Notes: a model not told the origin generated them from the sequence alone. DNA of 18,254 bases from Promethearchaeota archaeon (GCA_030603385.1 JAUVXW010000048.1:1-18254); one strand, 5' to 3'; shown: positions 1,490 through 11,337, counted from the stretch's first letter. Made by a program: numbers and translations.

Positions 1490-1664
1490 TTTACTCATTT
1501 TTCCAGAATAATAAAAATGTACTGTAACAAAATAGTAAAAAATTAAAAAAGTAAAAACACATTAATTCATAAAAAAGATTACAATCCTTTTGTGGTAGCA
1601 TCTATTTGAAGTTAAAAAAAAAATGAGGAATTAAAAGATTCCTTATTGGATGTACTACTATTGA

Positions 1665-1682
1665 TTTAAATATAAGAGGTGA
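1665..1682 (+). promoter_or_regulatory. Archaeal TATA box (TTTAAATA) and Shine-Dalgarno-like GAGGTGA upstream of ATG 1691
   Basis: TTTAAATA at 1665-1672 and GAGGTGA at 1676-1682. The GTG at 1679 used by the ORF track is part of this motif. Confidence 0.55.
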
Positions 1683-1690
1683 AATACAAA

Positions 1691-4099
1691 ATGAGGCGAA
1701 AGATTATCTTTATCCTATTTATTCTTAGCATGATGACGTTATTCTCTTTTTGTGAATTAGAAAAAGAGTATTTTCATAGTATAGATATTTTCCCCAATTT
1801 ATCTATCCTCCCAGAACTTGACTGGTGGGAAACATGGGATAATGGTGATGGAGATAAAGCATTTGATATTGCTATTGACTCTGAAGATAATATCTTTGTT
1901 GTGGGCGAGACTGATGTTGGGAATGTTTATGATATTGTTTTACTAAAATATAATTCTTCAGGTTCTTTAATATGGAATAAAACATGGGATAGTTATGATT
2001 ATGAAAGACCATATGCTATCGCGCTTGATACTTCAGGTAATATTTATGTAACAGGAAAATCTGGACCGAGTACTAGCCTTTATGATGTCTTTTTAGCAAA
2101 GTTTAATAATGAAGGGCAAGTTCAATGGAGTCGCTATTGGGGTGGTCCTGATCTTGATTATGGATATGATGTTGCTATAGATTCAGAGGGTAATATATTT
2201 GTAACTGGACTTACTTACACGCCTACTTCATCTGATATTTGCCTCTTAAAATATGATAATATGGGAAATTACCAATGGAATAGAACTTTTGGTGATATAA
2301 CTCAGTTTGATTCTGGTTATGGGTTGTCTATTAATAACAATACTGATGATATCTATCTTGTAGGTCAAATAGGTATATATGATGGTGGTGGTGATGTATT
2401 TATATCAAAATTCAATAATCAAGGGATTCAGCAGTGGAATGCTTCATGGGGTGCTGGTATAAATCACCAAGTAGCGACGGATGTTGTGTTTTATTCATAT
2501 GATAGTATTTATATCACAGGGGAAGATGCCGGCGATTCTCTGGTGATGAAATATAATGATACAGGGGATTTACAATGGTCTAAGACTTGGGGTGGGGTGT
2601 ATACCGAATGCGGTCGGAGATTGGTTGTAGATAATGATGAAAATATTTTTATTACAGGTTATTCTGGAGTTGACTATAGTTATGATATTTTTATATTAAA
2701 GTATAATATTGCTGGAATTCTACAATGGGAGAAAGTATGGTATTATACTCACAGGGCAGAGGGAGAAGGCATTGCTTTAGATTCAGAAGAAAATGTATAT
2801 GTTGTAGGATGGACTACTAGCCCTTGGGATGCGGTCATTTTAAAATACATTCAGTATCCACCTGGAGATTTTCTTCTTACTACTAACGCTTCAATTCCCC
2901 ACCTTGATGATAAATTTATTCTAACTTGGAATCCTTCGGAACGTGCAAAATCTTATTCAGTATATAAATATGACAAGTATATTACCTCGATTAATGATAG
3001 TGTTATTCTACTCAAAGACAATATTGTTGAAAATAATTATTTAGTTTCGAATTTAACAAGAGGAGATTGGTTTTTTATAGTAGTCGCTTTCAATCCGCTA
3101 GGTAATATCAGTTCAGACTGTATTAATATCTCAATTGTATTACCCCTTGATATAATTATTAATGATCCAATATCGGATGAATTATTTGGAAATACTCCAC
3201 CCAATTTCAATATCACAATTATTGGGAGATATAAAAATACTACGTGGTATACTCTTGATAGTGGAAGCACAAATTGTACCTTTAAAGAAACTGATGGTAT
3301 GATAAATCAATCAATATGGGACGACCAACCAGAAGGGATTGCCACAATTAGGTTTTATGCAAATAATAGTTTTAGTAATATATCATATAATGAAATTTCA
3401 GTTAGAAAAGATACACTTACCCCTAATATATCAATTTCAGATCCTTTACTTAATGAATTATTTGGAAATGATCCTCCTTTCTATATTATCTCAATAGATG
3501 AGATAAATTTGGATATATGGGGCTATACTTTTGATAACATTACTAGTTATACAATTACTAATTTTACAGGATACTTTAATCTAACTGCTTGGCAAGGTCT
3601 TGATAATGGTACAGTATTAATAACATTCTTTGCTATCGATAAAGCAGGTAATATGAATTCAAGCTATGTAGTTGTCAGAAAAGATTCTAATAATCCAGAC
3701 ATTATAATTCTTTCTCCAGACCCAGGCGAAATTTTTGGAGACATGTCCCCAGAGTTCAATATATCTATATTTGAAGATGACTTAATAGTCTCTACGTGGT
3801 ATACCGTGGAAGGGAGCACAACTCAATATCCCTTCACAGGAGTAACTGGAACAATTAGTCAAGAAGTATGGGAAAACTTAGTTGAAGGACAGATTACCAT
3901 AACCTTCTATGCCCAAGATCGAGCGGGAAATATAGGGAACGAAAGTATAATTGTTATAAAATCTATTCCAGCACCACCGACCGGCATTTCTGGAATTATT
4001 CCCGGAATAATAGGTAGTGTATCTGCCATTCTTGTAATTTCTCTAATAATATGGGCAATATTTAACCAAAGAAAAAGAAAAAAATCAGATTTTTTTTAA
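1691..4099 (+). CDS. Cell-surface glycoprotein: signal/TM, 7-bladed SBBP beta-propeller, FN3-like domain, three Ig-like repeats, C-terminal TM anchor (Loki-CTERM-like)
   Basis: Seven repeats of W/F-G-x-D-x-I-A-I-D-S-x-x-N-I-Y-V-T-G...L-K-Y. Three I.I..P...E.FG..P.F.I.I repeats, two ending in A.D.AGN. Many NxS/T sequons. C-terminal ISG/IPG, hydrophobic helix, then RKRKK. Confidence 0.88.
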   Translation: MRRKIIFILFILSMMTLFSFCELEKEYFHSIDIFPNLSILPELDWWETWDNGDGDKAFDIAIDSEDNIFVVGETDVGNVYDIVLLKYNSSGSLIWNKTWDSYDYERPYAIALDTSGNIYVTGKSGPSTSLYDVFLAKFNNEGQVQWSRYWGGPDLDYGYDVAIDSEGNIFVTGLTYTPTSSDICLLKYDNMGNYQWNRTFGDITQFDSGYGLSINNNTDDIYLVGQIGIYDGGGDVFISKFNNQGIQQWNASWGAGINHQVATDVVFYSYDSIYITGEDAGDSLVMKYNDTGDLQWSKTWGGVYTECGRRLVVDNDENIFITGYSGVDYSYDIFILKYNIAGILQWEKVWYYTHRAEGEGIALDSEENVYVVGWTTSPWDAVILKYIQYPPGDFLLTTNASIPHLDDKFILTWNPSERAKSYSVYKYDKYITSINDSVILLKDNIVENNYLVSNLTRGDWFFIVVAFNPLGNISSDCINISIVLPLDIIINDPISDELFGNTPPNFNITIIGRYKNTTWYTLDSGSTNCTFKETDGMINQSIWDDQPEGIATIRFYANNSFSNISYNEISVRKDTLTPNISISDPLLNELFGNDPPFYIISIDEINLDIWGYTFDNITSYTITNFTGYFNLTAWQGLDNGTVLITFFAIDKAGNMNSSYVVVRKDSNNPDIIILSPDPGEIFGDMSPEFNISIFEDDLIVSTWYTVEGSTTQYPFTGVTGTISQEVWENLVEGQITITFYAQDRAGNIGNESIIVIKSIPAPPTGISGIIPGIIGSVSAILVISLIIWAIFNQRKRKKSDFF

Positions 4100-4142
4100 A
4101 AATAGAAGTGATTAATAATTAATATACACCCCATCTATGAGC

Positions 4143-6113
4143 CTATTGATAGAGTTCTTGAATAGCTTCTTCAAACTCCATATATTCCATGAACTCCACC
4201 CACACTTTCACCATTCTTTCCCGTGATGCAGAGAGAATAAAAACTCCATCGTTAGAAATTGCCAAGTGATTCAACTCCTCATAATATCCGTGAAAATCTT
4301 GTGTAATTGGCAGACTCTGTATAATCTCTCCGTCTGAAACCCTCCAAATAAATAACATACCTCCATCTTTCAGAGAAGGACCTTGTAGACCGGTGACAAC
4401 AAATTCTTGGTCAGGAGTCAAAACAAAAGTAACGATCCCATATCTTGCTTTCGGGTCTTTTGATTTACAAAATTCCATCTCTCTGAGTACATTCCCCGTA
4501 TCGATATCCCAAACCTTAATTGTTTCGTCATATGAGGCACTTATTATTTGCCCATCGTCTGTAATTGCAACATCAATGATCGCATGTTCATGTCCTACTA
4601 ATGTGGTGATAAGTCTTCCTTTTATGGTGTCCCAGACGTTCACAGTCTTATCAAATGCCCCGCTTACTAAATAATCTCCATTAGATGAAAATGAAAGTGA
4701 AGTAATTGAACCCCAGTGAGAACCCTTTGTCGTTTTTAATTGCCCTTTTCTTAAATCCCAGATTTTTATGGCACATTCATTCATATCATAGTCACTTGAA
4801 CCGCTAGCTAAGTAATGACCTTCAGGATCAAACGCCAAGGCATTTACAGAATCTTTATGGCCTTTAAAGGAATGTAGTAATGTACCTGTTTCATAATCCC
4901 ACACCTTCACGAAAGTATCCGAAGAACTTGCTACATATTTGCCATCAAGCGAAATTGCTATAGTAGATACTGACTGCCCTTTGTGGTCTCCGAATGCTCG
5001 AATCAATTCACCGTTGAATATACCAAATACCTTAAGTTTACCATCATTCGAACCCCTTATAAAATATTGTCTATCAGGTGTTATTACCACTGGACTGTAT
5101 TCACTTTGATCTAATTTATGGCTAACAACTTCTACATACACCCTATTATTGGTTAAAAAATCTAAAAATTCTTCCTTTATCCGAGCCAAAAAAGGAGCTC
5201 CATATTTTGAAGCCCTATAATCCTCAATATTTAGTAATAACAGATTAAGGTTAAGAGTGCTATAATCTATTTCATTTAAAATTACGTCAAATTCTTCTGG
5301 AGTTAAATAATCTAAATATTTTTCTTTGAAAAGATATCTCATGACAGGGATGTATCCCCTAACAAATCTTTGGGCTATTTCCTCTTTAAAGACCTTACTT
5401 GCCTTTACATCACCAACTTCGGTTAATTTTTTAAGCAGAGGAAATGATAAGTTACTATGAAGGAGTCGAGTGTCATACTCGTTTTCCGCCCATGCTTGTA
5501 AGTTAGAACAATGTGCCCAGAATTCCTGCTCTTTTGTGATCCCCAAATCTTCAGGAGTAAATTGTGTTTCTAAATTATTGTTATAGAGTAACTCAGCCTC
5601 ATCTATAGAATCGATCTCTTCTTGATTTTCATGTTTTTGGGGATCAATTATGAGAAGATAACGACACTGGTTAAAAGGTTCATTATCAACATAGATTTGG
5701 ATGAAATCCTCAATTTTCTTTAAAGAGATATGGCTATTAATGGAAAACTCAAGATTAGAGGAATCTACTGGATCATCCCAATCCTCAAAACTGTCATTTT
5801 TGAGAGCTTGTATTTCTTCTTCAAAAGTATGCTCTTCTTCAAACCCTTCTTTTAACGCAACCTTCTCATCATACGAGCAAAATTGAGCATAATCATCGTC
5901 AACACCACCAATGATATCTGGATCAAACTCAATCCCTTCTTCTTTCCAACGCCTCATCATCTCTGCTAATCCTTCATAGGTCTTTATAAAATCGTCTATA
6001 CTACCAGCTTTCGAAGTAATCCACTTATTCCTCCATATCGTGGTGAACTTTTTCCCTGAACAGGGGGTTGAAGAATCTGCCTCATGGTCTTTATTTTCTA
6101 CTTCTTCTTCCAT
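4143..6113 (-). CDS. WD40-repeat protein with an N-terminal acidic domain and a Lokiarchaeia-type FWxHCSNLQAW domain
   Basis: Seven WD40 blades, e.g. GHKDSVNALAF...IKIWD, SHWGSITSLSFS...VNVWD, GHEHAIIDVAI...IKVWD. The middle block IYVDNEPFNQCRYLL...IDSIDEA...QEFWAHCSNLQAWAENEYDTRLLHSNLSFPLLKKL is one I recall from Lokiarchaeia LRR proteins. Confidence 0.9.
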   Translation of the reverse strand: MEEEVENKDHEADSSTPCSGKKFTTIWRNKWITSKAGSIDDFIKTYEGLAEMMRRWKEEGIEFDPDIIGGVDDDYAQFCSYDEKVALKEGFEEEHTFEEEIQALKNDSFEDWDDPVDSSNLEFSINSHISLKKIEDFIQIYVDNEPFNQCRYLLIIDPQKHENQEEIDSIDEAELLYNNNLETQFTPEDLGITKEQEFWAHCSNLQAWAENEYDTRLLHSNLSFPLLKKLTEVGDVKASKVFKEEIAQRFVRGYIPVMRYLFKEKYLDYLTPEEFDVILNEIDYSTLNLNLLLLNIEDYRASKYGAPFLARIKEEFLDFLTNNRVYVEVVSHKLDQSEYSPVVITPDRQYFIRGSNDGKLKVFGIFNGELIRAFGDHKGQSVSTIAISLDGKYVASSSDTFVKVWDYETGTLLHSFKGHKDSVNALAFDPEGHYLASGSSDYDMNECAIKIWDLRKGQLKTTKGSHWGSITSLSFSSNGDYLVSGAFDKTVNVWDTIKGRLITTLVGHEHAIIDVAITDDGQIISASYDETIKVWDIDTGNVLREMEFCKSKDPKARYGIVTFVLTPDQEFVVTGLQGPSLKDGGMLFIWRVSDGEIIQSLPITQDFHGYYEELNHLAISNDGVFILSASRERMVKVWVEFMEYMEFEEAIQELYQ

Positions 6114-6177
6114 ATTACAACCTTAGTTGATTTTTTTCTAGGCTAATATGTTCAAAATATTTAAAAAGAAAAAAAAA

Positions 6178-6247
6178 TCAATATAGAACTCTATGTTGTT
6201 TTAGCTTGTTGGACTTTGAAATATACTCAGAACATGTCTTAAAGCCT
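6178..6247 (-). repeat. Imperfect 70-bp direct repeat, copy A: orphan 3' end (GFKTCSEYISKSNKLKQHRVLY*) of the small Cys-rich gene at 11167-11337
   Basis: 60/70 identical to 11167-11236 with no gaps. An in-frame TAA precedes it, there is no start codon, and a long T-run follows it on the minus strand. Confidence 0.9.
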
Positions 6248-6322
6248 TATGACAAAAAAGTTAAATATAATGAAGACGATATTGTCACGAATCCAAAAAA
6301 AATTCCAAATTGTGATAAAATA

Positions 6323-9300
6323 ATGAAAAAATTTAAGAAAATTATTTTAACAGTTCTTATAATTCTAATGTTTTTCGGTAGTACATTTAACTCTTTATTT
6401 TACAATAGTTTTGAAAATAAAACTACGACTAAGATTAATGAAAATTTATTGAAATCCTCGAGCAAAGTTGAGACCTCCTTAATTTTATTAGATAATCCTG
6501 GCAAGATGCTTAGTTGGAACCAGACAGGAACAATCTCAGCAATGTTAATTGTGAAAGAAGATCAAGAGCCTATCCCACTAGAACATTTAGAATTATATGT
6601 TTTTATTGACGAAGAATTGATCTTATTCAGCGGAGGGCTTACAAATGAACTTGGAGTCGTTAATTTTACTTTTTTTGTGGAGCTTGATAACGGCGATTAT
6701 CCATATGAAGTTAAATTTGAGTGTAATTCGGTTTTTACATCTACCAAAGCAGAATCTTATTTTACAGTAATAAATGATTACATTAAACCTTATATTTATT
6801 TTAATATGTATAGTTGCACTGATGCGGGAATAGTATTTGACTACACAATAGGTATTGATCTATGGCCGACAGTTATAGGGGGACTTGAATATGCGTATAT
6901 AGAGCTTCTTGCTCGTAAACCTAATACATATAGTATTGAAGTTATACGATTTCGTCATGATTGGCAAGGAAAACATGGAGAATATAAATCAGGACTGATT
7001 ACCTGTACATCGGCTGCATCGGGAAGTATAGGCCTTGGATATCTACTTCAAAACGGTTGGACTACAATCGATGTCCGTATTGAAGCAGAAGCAGAGATGT
7101 TACTTCCAGTACCTTGGCCTCCATTTGTATGGATTTTTGAAGAATCAGAAACTTATTCTAATTCATTTAATCTTATAGACGATGATGATGATGCTCCGAT
7201 TTTTGTTGACAATTCACATGATCCTTCAATAAGTATTCAATATGAAGGAGATTACAACATAAACTTAACATATAAGGACCAATCAGGCTGGGATGCCTAT
7301 ATTCAATATGGTTTCATAAACGAGACGTGTAATGTTATCTATGACGATTATATAGGAGGAACAGGCAATACAAACCTAACAACAATAACATATAGTATTC
7401 CAAAAACCATCTGGGGCTTGTTTCCGGGTACGACAATTAGATATAGGACGAAAGCAATTGATCGCGATATGGATAGAGGAGGAGGGAATAAAGACCTTAG
7501 TGCTAGTAGTTGGACAAATTGGATGGACGCAGGACATATCTTTAAAAGTTTTGGGGGTGCACTAGAAAAAGTTGAAACATGGATTTATTTAGATGATAAA
7601 TGGCAAATCTGGTCAATCTCACCTAATAAACCACCACCTTACAACACATTTTATCTTAGGGACATAAATTTTTTCACATTATCCATTGTCAATCCATTAA
7701 ATGATATTATAACAGTGTCCAATGCATTATTATCATTTTCTTGCCCTAAATTTTTATCAGGACCATCAGCGCCAAGTCCTATAGGTATTATTATCTCAGA
7801 TCCTATACATGAAAAAGAAAGACTTAGTATAGTAAATAATCAACCCTTTAATCCTTCGCATTTTATCATGGATGGATGGAGCTCGACAAATATAACTATT
7901 GAATTCGCTCTTGATTACTATATCGGAATTGACAGTGATAATGTTTTTCATTTTTCAAAGTCATATATATATACAATAATAAGACCACCTCAACCTACAG
8001 TCAATTTTATTGGATTTAGTGGTCCCCTCTTTTATAAGTCGGGTGGAAAAGGGTCTGTAATTGACGCTAAATTCAACATTAAAAATAACGCCCGGGCACC
8101 AATACAAGTTACTCAAAACTACCAATTTTCTAACGATGTAGGATCAGAACTTAGGGAGAAATTAACCATTAGTCAACAATTTAAAGCAGATGTTTTAATT
8201 AAACCTGATGAAAGCGAAGAATTGAGTTTTAAAATGAATGTACCGCTAGGAGGAACAAGATATTTTTGGGATGCTAGTATTATTATATTAAAGGGTATAA
8301 AATATATTCTTAAAATCTTCGGTGCCGCACTCGATGTAAGGCTCATTCAAGTTCTCAAAACAGTAGAAGAATTGTCTAAAACAGGATTAAAAAATTTAGC
8401 CTTAGCCTCTGGAATAATTAATACGTTGTTAGCAGTTTATAATGGTATTGTCCTTACCATTATTGCGGGAGTATCCAGACTAGCTGATTTACAAAGAAAT
8501 TATGATTTTGTTTCCGAAGTTACTTGGAAATATATCCATAATGGAGGCTCTGATGATACTGCTCACAACGTATTGGGATATGGTAATATCAAACCATCAA
8601 TTTATACTTTGAATTTAGTTCCATCTGCTGAACAGGAAGCCTTTTTTTGGGCGGGTTTCGGGCTAAAGATTGCTTTAGGTGTTTCATATGGGATTGCGGC
8701 AGCAATACATTTTTCTGCCTATGCAGGAGGACCTTTAGCCCCATTGATTAAAGCTGCTGCAGTCATATCGACATTAGTTTGTCTTGCTATGGAGTTTCTT
8801 TCTGATTGGTTTTGGTGGGAGGCAAACGATGATGTTCCATTAAACGACAATTACGATGAAACATATGTTCCAGAGTATTCCTCACTTAATATTTCGGATT
8901 ACAATGTAGGAAATGAATTTGAAGAAACTATTATTAACCTTGGAAATACAACTCTTCGAATGACAGAAGATTTAAGGGCATTGAACGAAACTAAATCAAG
9001 AAAAGAATCTGCTATAATAGCTGGAGATTACAATGCCGTTTTAATGCAAAATGAGGCTTTAATGGACTATTCTGGAAGAGTCGCTGACGATTTTAAAGAT
9101 TTAAATAACGACTTAGAATTGCTTAGTTATCATATGAAAGAAAATTCTCCTGAGATTAAGGAATCGATATATAAATTAGAATCTAATTTTTCTCAATCGG
9201 GTTTATCTGAAGAAGAAATTTCATTGTTGCAATCTAATGGATTTAATCAAACTGAAATCCAGAGCCTAAATGCAACTTTGGTAAATGTTACAAAATCAAA

Positions 9301-10954
9301 TACGTTTTCAAGCAATATTACATCACTTGTTTCAGACTTTGAAACAACTTTAAATACTTCCTCTCAAATATTTAATGCGGAGATAATACGACTCGAGGAT
9401 TATTCACTTGAGATAATGAACGAATCGATACAAATAAAAACTGAGATTCTTAACGAGCCGATAACTAGTGCTGATGACGAGACATTACAGCAACTTGATC
9501 AACTCAAGGTAGATATCGAAGATTCGTTTCTTAGGGGAGAATGGAATAACGTGGTTGAAAAATCAGAATTATTAATTGAGTTAGCTAGAAATGTTGCTTT
9601 AGAGACCAATAACAACTCATTTTTGAAAGAATATGTTGAATACGCAAAAGAATACAAAACTAATGCAAAACAATTCCTAAAATTGAATTTATACCACCTA
9701 AAAGAGATTTCAATTACTGATAATGAAACTAAAACATTAAACGTGATTGGTCATAGCGAAGGAGCACCTACTGCTAATTACATCTTGGAAACCAACTGTT
9801 CTTGGGTAACACCAATAGAACAAACCGTTGCGATCGTGCAATACAATAGAACCCCAATACAACTCATTATCTCGACTGAGAACGATTCAACAATAACTCT
9901 CGGAATATATTATGTTGAGTTAAAATTGTATCTACCACAGACAAATACGATAAAATTTTCGTTATTGACAATCAATGTGATGGATGACGATTTAACTCCT
10001 CCAGAGATACTTGTTAGCCCTTTTGATTATAGTAACTTTAGTTGGCAAGCTATGATAATCGATGATGATGGTGAAATAGATAGTGAGGCAACGGCGATCT
10101 ATAAAGTTATTGATCAGAATTCCAACATTATTCTCCAGGGAGAAATTTTAGAAGAATCAAGTCTTGAGACAATATTTATACCTTTCAAAGAGGGTACATA
10201 TACATTATTAATTGAAGCTTCTAATAATGACAATGATCGAGAAAACGATGAGGAACTTAGCTATTTTGAAGAAGTAATTGAAATCACCATAGATGAGATG
10301 TATTCTTATGTTGATTGGCAACTAGAAGAACTAGCAGAATATATAGAGAATCACTTGAATTATAGGTATAGGAGATGTATTATCCATAAACTATCAAAAG
10401 CGCAAGAACAGTTACAGGAAGCTCTTTATCTCATTGAGAAAGGAGATATTACTTGTGGTATATACCATGATCTCATTGCAAAAATATGTGTGAGATTTTC
10501 AGAAATTAAAACCGAGATTTTAAACAGATTAAACAGAATTGATGATGAAATTGCAGAATATATCATAAGCACACTTCATAATATAAGGAATAACATTGTG
10601 ATTTTAATGGGAGCTTCAATTTGTGAACCACTTGCTTACGATATTGCTTTAATAGAAGTGGAATTACTCAATCTAAATGATTTTATTAAAGAAGAGATTC
10701 CCTGCTATACAAATAAATATCTTAGCAGTAAAGTCTATTGTGCTTCAAAAATGTTAGAAATTGCGCTTTTTAGGATCTCAATGGGCTATAGTATTGAATA
10801 TATATTAGAGTGTACTCAATGGAAATTAGAACGAGTCATATGGAGAATTGATTGGAATCTCAAGAAAGGGAGGGTCTCTGAAGATTTAGCTAATTACCTA
10901 ATTGAAGAAATTACCAGAATAATTGAAGCTATAGAACAAGTAATCATAAATTAA
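6323..10954 (+). CDS. Large secreted multidomain protein (~1543 aa): signal/TM, Ig-like domains with DDD..P / D.DR..D motifs, central hydrophobic helices, helical bundle, two FIMAH-like C-terminal domains
   Basis: ATG 6323 (MKKFKKIILTVLIILMFFG) follows GTGAT and gives a proper signal sequence. The upstream TTG 6206 lies inside the repeat. DDDDDAP...AIDRDMDR..D and DDDLTPP...ASNNDNDREND recur. The C-terminal helical units end in RIDDEIAEYII and GRVSEDLANYLIEEI. Confidence 0.85.
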   Translation: MKKFKKIILTVLIILMFFGSTFNSLFYNSFENKTTTKINENLLKSSSKVETSLILLDNPGKMLSWNQTGTISAMLIVKEDQEPIPLEHLELYVFIDEELILFSGGLTNELGVVNFTFFVELDNGDYPYEVKFECNSVFTSTKAESYFTVINDYIKPYIYFNMYSCTDAGIVFDYTIGIDLWPTVIGGLEYAYIELLARKPNTYSIEVIRFRHDWQGKHGEYKSGLITCTSAASGSIGLGYLLQNGWTTIDVRIEAEAEMLLPVPWPPFVWIFEESETYSNSFNLIDDDDDAPIFVDNSHDPSISIQYEGDYNINLTYKDQSGWDAYIQYGFINETCNVIYDDYIGGTGNTNLTTITYSIPKTIWGLFPGTTIRYRTKAIDRDMDRGGGNKDLSASSWTNWMDAGHIFKSFGGALEKVETWIYLDDKWQIWSISPNKPPPYNTFYLRDINFFTLSIVNPLNDIITVSNALLSFSCPKFLSGPSAPSPIGIIISDPIHEKERLSIVNNQPFNPSHFIMDGWSSTNITIEFALDYYIGIDSDNVFHFSKSYIYTIIRPPQPTVNFIGFSGPLFYKSGGKGSVIDAKFNIKNNARAPIQVTQNYQFSNDVGSELREKLTISQQFKADVLIKPDESEELSFKMNVPLGGTRYFWDASIIILKGIKYILKIFGAALDVRLIQVLKTVEELSKTGLKNLALASGIINTLLAVYNGIVLTIIAGVSRLADLQRNYDFVSEVTWKYIHNGGSDDTAHNVLGYGNIKPSIYTLNLVPSAEQEAFFWAGFGLKIALGVSYGIAAAIHFSAYAGGPLAPLIKAAAVISTLVCLAMEFLSDWFWWEANDDVPLNDNYDETYVPEYSSLNISDYNVGNEFEETIINLGNTTLRMTEDLRALNETKSRKESAIIAGDYNAVLMQNEALMDYSGRVADDFKDLNNDLELLSYHMKENSPEIKESIYKLESNFSQSGLSEEEISLLQSNGFNQTEIQSLNATLVNVTKSNTFSSNITSLVSDFETTLNTSSQIFNAEIIRLEDYSLEIMNESIQIKTEILNEPITSADDETLQQLDQLKVDIEDSFLRGEWNNVVEKSELLIELARNVALETNNNSFLKEYVEYAKEYKTNAKQFLKLNLYHLKEISITDNETKTLNVIGHSEGAPTANYILETNCSWVTPIEQTVAIVQYNRTPIQLIISTENDSTITLGIYYVELKLYLPQTNTIKFSLLTINVMDDDLTPPEILVSPFDYSNFSWQAMIIDDDGEIDSEATAIYKVIDQNSNIILQGEILEESSLETIFIPFKEGTYTLLIEASNNDNDRENDEELSYFEEVIEITIDEMYSYVDWQLEELAEYIENHLNYRYRRCIIHKLSKAQEQLQEALYLIEKGDITCGIYHDLIAKICVRFSEIKTEILNRLNRIDDEIAEYIISTLHNIRNNIVILMGASICEPLAYDIALIEVELLNLNDFIKEEIPCYTNKYLSSKVYCASKMLEIALFRISMGYSIEYILECTQWKLERVIWRIDWNLKKGRVSEDLANYLIEEITRIIEAIEQVIIN

Positions 10955-11078
10955 ACTTAATTTATTTCAATTTTTTTTCTTATTCTATTTATAATTTATG
11001 ATTAATTTCCCTTAATAGCCTAATGTCATAATTTCGATCCAAAAATTAAATTTTTAGTTTTTATTATTTGAAATAAAT

Positions 11079-11147
11079 CTATATTACATTCTTTCCACAT
11101 ACATGATATATTGTTTGTCCTTTTGGGAGTTCAGCGCCACAATGCTG
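11079..11147 (-). pseudogene. Startless remnant of a C-terminal zinc ribbon
   Basis: Translates as QHCGAELPKGQTIYHVCGKNVI*, a CxxC-x10-CxxC ribbon missing its first Cys and with the third read as Tyr (TAT vs TGT). Confidence 0.6.
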
Positions 11148-11166
11148 ATTAAAGAGAAAATAAATT

Positions 11167-11337
11167 TCAATAAAGAATTCTATGTTGTTTTAGTTTGTTG
11201 GATTTTGAAATGTACTCTGAGCACATCTTAAATCCTGAAATTTCACATATGAAATGATGTTTTGGAAGGTCGCATTGTGTTATAAAGGGACAGGTAAGCA
11301 AATTAACTTCAGGAATAACTTCTGACTCTACACCCAT
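11167..11337 (-). CDS. Small four-cysteine protein (56 aa; below the ORF-track cutoff)
   Basis: MGVESEVIPEVNLLTCPFITQCDLPKHHFICEISGFKMCSEYISKSNKLKQHRILY*. Seven of the ten differences from the copy at 6178-6247 are synonymous, which supports real coding function. An alternative in-frame ATG lies at 11346. Confidence 0.8.
   Translation of the reverse strand: MGVESEVIPEVNLLTCPFITQCDLPKHHFICEISGFKMCSEYISKSNKLKQHRILY

Follow-up and report, generated by a model that had tools for sequence, protein, structure and literature searches.

No organisms known are more closely related to eukaryotes than the Asgard archaea, whose cells carry protrusions and make close contact with partners, and whose surface proteins are almost uncharacterised. 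In other organisms, polytopic proteins with very large extracellular helical domains are known, such as the EsaA/YueB/PIP-type proteins of Firmicutes and prominin and Tweety of animals. A proteomic study of an Asgard archaeon did not find a surface-layer (S-layer) protein (PMC11284389). Here we analyse a giant gene from a Promethearchaeota archaeon, located on a contig of 18,254 bases (GCA_030603385.1, JAUVXW010000048.1:1-18254; contig C56) that was examined as a whole and is called the window below, in a genome of 3.9 Mb that is 94% complete. Its product is most likely a large, N-glycosylated cell-surface protein whose central 190 residues form a hub, and we regard it as roughly an even bet that this hub is a four-helix unit held constitutively in the producer's own membrane, with two arms outside. 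By analogy, such a protein would work like the EsaA/YueB/PIP and prominin/Tweety types, which likewise join membrane helices to a long glycosylated or exposed helical stalk. It differs from them, however, in that the helical domain follows the last putative membrane helix and never returns, and in that one hairpin is placed inside a beta-sandwich. No search gave a sequence or fold match to the EsaA or prominin types, and no such chain is among the 50 best matches in the fold comparison with VIA-align.

A single giant coding region had been proposed in the original prediction, and the list of open reading frames (ORFs) and the translation agree: one open frame runs to a stop codon at 10952-10954. 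Its longest version begins with TTG at 6206, but the ATG at 6323 is favoured because it opens on a signal-like segment, in which a basic n-region precedes a hydrophobic stretch of 13-16 residues, and because the N-termini of homologues are alike. This segment is the sole clearly insertion-grade part of the protein, with a sum of -0.5 on a translocon-type scale that is crude and lacks positional terms. The peptides quoted earlier, namely three hydrophobic helices, the ANDDVP..NY motif and two helical-domain peptides, are all found in the translation, the hydrophobic helices at residues 692-717, 774-797 and 802-826 (nucleotides about 8396-8800) and the motif at residues 834-844, followed by the helical-domain peptides. 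Kyte-Doolittle (KD) averages over 19 residues peak in the centre of the protein at 1.59 (residue 652), 1.86 (697), 1.55 (777) and 2.05 (805). Beyond residue 830, the threshold is exceeded just once, by segment 1425-1444 (peak 1.70); Glu and Asp are among its residues, and its crude translocon score is +6.4. Thus the protein has no C-terminal membrane anchor, as had been claimed.

To describe the architecture, two AlphaFold2 (AF2) models from alignments of 19-20 sequences were used, one of residues 545-1330 (786 residues, mean predicted local distance difference test score [pLDDT] 76) and one of residues 640-1130 (491 residues, mean pLDDT 78). Folds were compared by VIA-align wide, which searched 48,161 chains and listed the top 50, with Z of about 13 as the meaningful level for helical folds; helix packing was deduced from the residue ranges of the fold matches. 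The predicted order is a signal, an N-terminal arm (N-arm), an immunoglobulin (Ig)-like sandwich with the helices H1, H1b and H2 inserted in it, the H3-GGP-H4 hairpin, a linker, a helical domain, two Ig-like domains and a C-terminal helical domain (Table 1). The N-arm gives no Pfam match; of all homologues, just the closest one (38% identity over 1371 columns) has a similar arm, and other members have different N-arms. Matches to HAP2 domain III, integrin calf and TMEM106B lumenal domains cover model residues 8-225, and hence residues 552-640 and 725-767 are taken as one beta-sandwich that is interrupted by the first helices. The beta-hairpin completing it is predicted at pLDDT 79-94 (model residues 181-230), falling to 65 at its start (model residues 171-180). 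Between these parts, H1 and H1b are amphipathic, and the connector 667-691 is the sole net-basic segment of the module.

After H4, the linker of about 30 residues is extended in the models, with N835 invariant and A834 almost so in 18 sequences. The helical domain that follows comprises a bundle A, which has a single low block (pLDDT 59 at model residues 311-320) and matches only generic three- to four-helix bundles at Z about 11, below the level of about 13, and a bundle B, which matches MIT domains and designed three-helix bundles at Z about 10, below the level of kinship for helical folds. The second of the two following Ig-like domains has a weak Pfam match to Y_Y_Y (E 5e-4), below the cut-off. 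Two structural points of the original prediction hold up here: the hydrophobic helices lie between Ig-like regions, since AF2 and VIA-align give Ig-like folds at 552-640/725-767 and at 1121-1222 (the latter with Z 12.3), and the helical bundle of about 250 residues predicted after ANDDVP..NY is modelled at 865-1120 (256 residues).

Acidic DDD..(T)PP motifs are also present at the borders of Ig-like domains (residues ~285-294 and ~1219-1229; window ~7170-7200 and ~9980-10010). Calcium-binding interdomain linkers of the cadherin type carry a D-x-N-D-N-x-P motif. The A-N-D-(D)-x-P sequence that follows H4 recalls such linkers between beta-sandwich repeats, as do the DDD..(T)PP motifs. It comes after a helix rather than a beta-sandwich, however, and no cadherin family in Pfam is matched.

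Table 1. Features of the giant gene and its flanks, with window coordinates (AF2, AlphaFold2; KD, Kyte-Doolittle)
Feature	Window position	Strand	Basis or remark
Direct repeat of 89 nt, left copy	6159..6247	+	81% identical to 11148-11236, spacing 4989 nt
Giant gene	6323..10954	+	ORF list and translation; 1543 aa plus stop
N-terminal signal peptide or signal anchor, residues 1-27	6323..6403	+	KD peak 2.15
Variable N-arm, residues 28-551	6404..7975	+	Beta-rich, DDD..P linker motifs
Ig-like beta-sandwich, first part, residues 552-640	7976..8242	+	AF2 strands, pLDDT 81-95
Helices H1 (651-666), H1b (672-687) and H2 (692-720)	8273..8482	+	DSSP of AF2 model; inserted in sandwich loop
Conserved beta-hairpin completing the sandwich, residues 723-768	8489..8626	+	R.Y.F.S...W.Y ... 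L.LKPS..Q; conserved columns
Hairpin H3 (769-800), GGP turn, H4 (806-835)	8627..8818	+	AF2 helices of 32 and 30 residues
Acidic, putatively juxtamembrane linker, family signature W..AND(D).P..NY..Y.P.Y	8819..8914	+	Conserved columns
Helical bundle A, residues 865-1045, long helices, sequon-dense	8915..9457	+	AF2 pLDDT mostly 70-95
Three-helix MIT/TPR-like bundle B, residues 1050-1120	9470..9682	+	VIA-align
PapD/MSP/macroglobulin-type Ig domain, residues 1121-1222	9683..9988	+	VIA-align Z 10-12.3, root-mean-square deviation 2.1-2.6, about 97 residues
Second Ig-like domain, residues 1223-1330	9989..10312	+	AF2 strands, low confidence, pLDDT 34-59
C-terminal helical domain, residues 1331-1543 (213 residues)	10313..10951	+	Homology; no sequons, 7 Cys
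Direct repeat of 89 nt, right copy	11148..11236	+	Overlaps 3' end of a minus-strand 56-aa Cys-rich ORF

The central helices have a strongly apolar character that is conserved in the family. Charged residues make up 3% of H2, 4% of H3 and 11% of H4, compared with 27% of the adjoining helical domain, and when 18 sequences are compared column by column, charge is absent or rare (<=0.1) in the majority of H2, H3 and H4 positions. Exceptions occur at a few sites: an Asn/Asp-type stripe in H2 (700/707) with partly charged columns at 697, 710 and 712, a K/R at 782, conserved and close to the outer end of H3, and a partly acidic stripe in H4 (817/821/824/828). Small residues occupy each seventh position of H3 (778/785/792/799) and H4 (813/820/827), a heptad recurrence known from tight antiparallel helix pairs, and conserved aromatic residues (FF 647-648, F775, W831) mark the outer, sandwich-proximal ends of the helices. 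In the VIA-align comparison, model residues 3-200 alone match a designed helical bundle (Z 9.3), and none of the matches plausibly extends from them into the helical domain at 225-405. In the AlphaFold prediction, H1-H4 therefore stand apart as a bundle that is unshielded by amphipathic helices, which suggests a separate, largely apolar unit, and a four-helix unit cannot bury so many apolar faces in water. H2, H3 and H4 are each 29-32 residues long, enough to span a bilayer, and H1 with H1b makes a fourth leg in the AF2 models. As in a multi-pass anchor, the number of bilayer-length helices is even and their hydrophobicity is conserved, with the caveat that in some homologues just a single segment reaches KD>=1.6. 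Moreover, both hairpins start and finish at the same beta-sandwich in the AF2 model and its VIA-align matches, and because the starts and ends coincide there, they fit a path into the membrane and out again.

The distribution of N-X-S/T sequons and of charge gives further clues to topology. Over 18 proteins, the N-arms hold 127 sequons where 128 are expected (ratio 0.99) and the core 12 where 19 are expected (0.62), while the 290 residues past the motif hold 235 against an expected 86 (2.7), many of them in conserved columns. The Asn of an N-X-S/T sequon has been found to be glycosylated in an Asgard archaeon (PMC11284389). Given this glycosylation, and the excess of sequons past the motif and their conservation, the sequon-rich stalk is very probably outside the cell; the N-arm, being beta-rich and following a signal peptide, is probably outside too. 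The chain between them would thus cross the membrane an even number of times, or not at all. The H1-H2 connector has 11.5% K+R to 7.9% D+E, whereas all the segments placed outside are net acidic, the linker after H4 strongly so (4.8% K+R to 17.1% D+E).

A route through the membrane that would account for these features can be proposed. Guided by its N-terminal signal, the chain would reach the Sec translocon, through which the variable N-arm would pass. The H1/H1b-H2 hairpin, carried in a loop of the Ig-like sandwich, would then dip into the membrane and return, leaving its lysine-rich connector in the cytoplasm, and the conserved beta-hairpin would finish the sandwich outside. Once the sandwich is complete, the tightly packed H3-GGP-H4 hairpin would insert, after which the chain would leave the membrane through a belt of aromatic residues and the acidic AND(D).P..NY linker. 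The glycan-coated helical stalk would follow, then the two Ig domains and finally the C-terminal helical domain, which many Asgard surface proteins share. The whole may serve in adhesion or as part of the surface coat. The original prediction had named ordinary constitutive transmembrane (TM) segments as the outcome that would speak against a pore-former; we judge this outcome the likelier one.

Several observations weigh against a constitutive membrane hub. On the crude translocon-type scale, in kcal/mol-like units, the helices are only marginal (H2 +2.3, H4 +2.6, H3 +4.2, H1 +5.8), and true single-pass anchors encoded by the same genome are far more hydrophobic and have K/R-rich tails. H1 is amphipathic in this protein, with three Lys, and pLDDT in the models is 39-65 for H1/H1b and 62-77 for H2. 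In several homologues (P0005, P0006, P0007/L012, L013, P0018) the helices contain Asp or Glu, or only one segment is of TM grade. In addition, the connector is net positive in just 9 of 17 sequences, and the turn between H3 and H4 shows no positive-inside signal, with equal K+R and D+E (3.7% each).

Some of these same features would suit a latent membrane-inserting device, that is, a pore-former, fusogen or contact protein that is exported with its hairpins shielded in the protein or an oligomer and that inserts into another cell on contact or at low pH. The original prediction of a membrane-inserting toxin, fusogen or contact protein is of this kind, and it survives in part: a membrane-grade element in a large, probably glycosylated surface protein is what we find, and "contact protein" is a reasonable description, but a likeness to toxins or fusion proteins is not supported. 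The marginal hydrophobicity on the crude translocon scale would permit passage through Sec; 30-46% of the helix residues are Gly, Ala, Ser or Thr; acidic residues recur along one side of H4 and at the tips of some hairpins, the turn being free of basic residues; most members lack a classical anchor; and the gene lies in variable DNA adjoining toxin-antitoxin-like genes. An Ala/Gly-rich hydrophobic hairpin adjoining long amphipathic helices, here with occasional acidic residues on it or near its tip, is also what colicin and the alpha-pore-forming toxins have. Against this, comparison of the AlphaFold models by Foldseek and VIA-align with colicin, ClyA/Hbl/Nhe and the diphtheria T-domain, much as had been suggested, showed no likeness in fold, and Pfam none in sequence, nor did any to viral fusion proteins emerge. 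PF01024 gives no match at E<=10 for residues 640-1130, and neither it nor another toxin family matches any of 20 members at E<=1. For the 491-residue model, Foldseek finds nothing below E 1e-3 in the PDB and nothing below E 0.07 in BFVD, where no match is to a fusion protein. The top 50 VIA-align matches of both models are Ig domains and generic helical bundles, with no alpha-pore-forming toxin, colicin or diphtheria-T chain among them, a fold outside those listed still being possible. Complement C3b chains came up for the 786-residue model in the PDB at a TM-score of about 0.1 and were rejected as a multi-domain artefact of Ig and helical domains together. The order of elements differs as well: in both AF2 models a hairpin is followed by a 30-residue extended linker and then a bundle, so that the hairpin precedes the bundle and is neither within it nor at its tip, whereas in ClyA/Hbl/Nhe/XaxAB-type proteins the hydrophobic head sits between tail helices. 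Colicin-type domains are globules of about 10 helices with the hairpin buried inside amphipathic ones; here H1-H4 match only a designed bundle on their own, and in the models amphipathic helices do not appear to enclose the hairpin. The present protein differs further from colicin and the alpha-pore-forming toxins in its Sec-type signal, its Ig domains and a stalk that is densely decorated with sequons. Class I viral-type fusion proteins have a C-terminal TM anchor after their helical repeats, and here no TM-grade segment lies past residue 830. Furthermore, homologue loci have no conserved partner or immunity-like neighbour and none in common with the window, PADLOC gives no match, and the architecture is that of modular surface adhesins, with a C-terminal domain that is common to many surface proteins not resembling toxins. 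A latent device in general is therefore rather unlikely, and the specific version in which the hairpin-ANDD-stalk unit is such a device, its hairpins escaping the producer's membrane during export and later entering that of a partner or rival, is unlikely.

Two other explanations keep the helices from crossing any membrane. In one, the helices form an extracellular oligomerisation core, in which the apolar helices of several subunits pack together, for example as a trimeric or pentameric stalk base, and never enter a bilayer, the protein being retained by an N-terminal anchor or by its C-terminal domain. Apolar surfaces need to be buried, which does not require lipid, and heptad stripes of small residues are compatible with this, since soluble antiparallel coiled coils show them too. 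Moreover, several homologues carry a very hydrophobic N-terminal segment of 18-22 residues that could remain as an anchor, and the C-terminal domain is present in paralogues without the hydrophobic core. However, roughly 80 successive near-uncharged helical residues would be unusual in an extracellular domain of a very acidic protein, and the basic H1-H2 connector and the aromatic belts suit a membrane interface better; we consider this explanation improbable. The other takes the hairpins as re-entrant, interfacial or lipid-binding elements in the outer leaflet, forming a monotopic anchor. It would agree with the short, uncharged H3-H4 turn (GGP, GP or PP), with the weak positive-inside signal, and with the fact that H4 is too short or too polar for a bilayer in some homologues such as P0006. 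Yet H2, H3 and H4 are of bilayer-spanning length in this protein, and the H1-H2 connector, which is long, variable in length and basic, more closely resembles a cytoplasmic loop; a monotopic anchor is accordingly quite doubtful, and a hub that spans the producer's membrane remains the preferred reading.

Relatives of this protein are few. An exhaustive HMMER search of 1.8 billion cluster representatives gave 20 proteins at E<=0.001, 11 of which are at E<=1e-30, and a word-indexed search gave a single protein, 42% identical. Relatives occur in 7 of 400 genomes of the phylum and, in the same genus, in just 1 other of 53 genomes. The approximately 20 relatives are unannotated, and where the organism is named it is an Asgard archaeon (Promethearchaeota, Freyarchaeia), one carrier being Candidatus Freyarchaeota. 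Together with the Promethearchaeota labels of proteins that share the C-terminal domain, this supports an Asgard origin. A search for related loci gave none from the single protein and one Freyarchaeia locus from the alignment. When the whole protein and four sub-regions were compared with Pfam, NCBIfam and PADLOC, only the sub-threshold Ig-type Y_Y_Y match appeared; a few homologues bear Ig/PKD-type domains (Big_3_5, PKD), and a PDB sequence search with the family profile found no relative. The family is small and unnamed, without a Pfam, NCBIfam or PDB relative; a look-up by sequence gave no similar stretch outside the window, and the family appears to be a distinct, undescribed one.

Within the family, 18 homologues can be aligned over the hydrophobic block, the ANDD motif and the helical domain, which, together with the AlphaFold and VIA-align folds, indicates that the helical feature is not due to chance. 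The alignment of most homologues spans about residue 690 to 1130, N-arms and C-terminal arms being exchanged between members; thus the conserved unit consists of H2-H4, the helical domain and the flanking Ig domains. Two shorter relatives, P0019 and P0022, comprise a cleavable-looking signal, a beta domain, the hydrophobic hairpin, the motif and the helical domain. P0006, the one member with degenerate H3/H4, carries a C-terminal TM segment, and most members have no other anchor, a pattern that speaks for the membrane hub. Four homologues (P0011, P0014, P0015, P0017) end in a low-complexity tail rich in Gly, Ser and Glu, whose last residues are always [MI]-P-[TS]-H; in this subfamily, the terminal motif may serve in processing or sorting.

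A distant paralogue in the same genome (L018, on G000:C46; 1809 residues) has the same plan, with a signal, beta domains, Gly-rich amphipathic helices, a beta-hairpin and a hydrophobic hairpin with a GGP turn. Next comes a basic and acidic stretch, which ends in DDPDPP..DY, then a helical domain, Ig repeats and finally the C-terminal domain also present here. A phmmer search with the core did not detect it.

The C-terminal domain has a distribution of its own. It is present in two paralogues of the same genome (G000:C46:53945-54937 and G000:C32:47860-48867), and it also ends 20 other large Asgard proteins (Promethearchaeota or Hermodarchaeota where named), whose ectodomains are wholly different from one another (CARDB, NosD beta-helix, PKD, FG-GAP and LVIVD types). 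Since a domain so widely shared could retain proteins at the surface, the argument that a protein with no C-terminal anchor must be secreted is weakened. The two "FIMAH-like units" that had been read into this end of the protein find no counterpart: no relevant Pfam match appears at E<=10, and the halves of residues 1331-1543 are dissimilar (E 0.24), while the literature retrieved for "FIMAH" concerns fimA/fimH only. Residues 1331-1543 have no Pfam match at E<=10 other than two at chance level, and no PDB sequence match. The domain could be a general surface-retention or assembly module, and is a candidate domain without a Pfam family.

The gene is bracketed by the 89-nt direct repeat, of which only these two copies exist genome-wide, plus one weak match (65%) on another contig (C4). 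The right copy reaches into a 56-aa ORF (11337-11167, minus strand) with four Cys and an HH pair, which has 79% nucleotide identity to its counterpart in a genome of the same genus, G213; it is the 3' end of this ORF that has its duplicate ahead of the giant gene. In G213 (L024, G213:C95), the orthologue of the small ORF is about 230 nt from the orthologue of the ORF at 1160-1489, and the window from ~1490 to 11160 (~9.7 kb), with an SBBP surface protein, a WD40 protein and the giant gene, is missing. The bracketing repeat and this gap therefore place the gene in a variable region, and from sequence comparison window 1490-11160 looks like a hypervariable surface-protein locus. The original prediction of a mobile cassette agrees with the flanking repeats, the variable DNA and the presence of relatives in 7 of 400 genomes, but not with the lack of a recombinase: the bracketed 5 kb holds the giant gene alone, and no integrase family was found among the eight window proteins scanned. 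A "cassette" mechanism stays hypothetical.

To the left of the right repeat, a sequence of about 70 nt (11076-11146) has copies of 80-87% identity in many genomes of this genus, often several times per contig at distances of 0.07-2.4 kb (for example G191:C9, G195:C84 and G218:C10). Rfam gives no match anywhere in the window, including this element, and folding of the 70 nt gives no structure above that of shuffled sequences. The element may be a conserved gene end, a miniature inverted-repeat transposable element or a recombination site.

In summary, the protein would represent an unusual way of mounting a giant glycoprotein, with two helical hairpins in mid-chain, one of them within an Ig-like domain, ahead of an invariant acidic motif and a helical stalk rich in sequons. 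If the hairpins do insert later into the membrane of another cell, the family would be a new class of membrane-active protein, and would point to protein-based membrane contact, fusion or attack in the relatives of eukaryotes. If instead they form a constitutive hub in the producer's own membrane, the family would provide a defined, testable building block of the Asgard cell surface.

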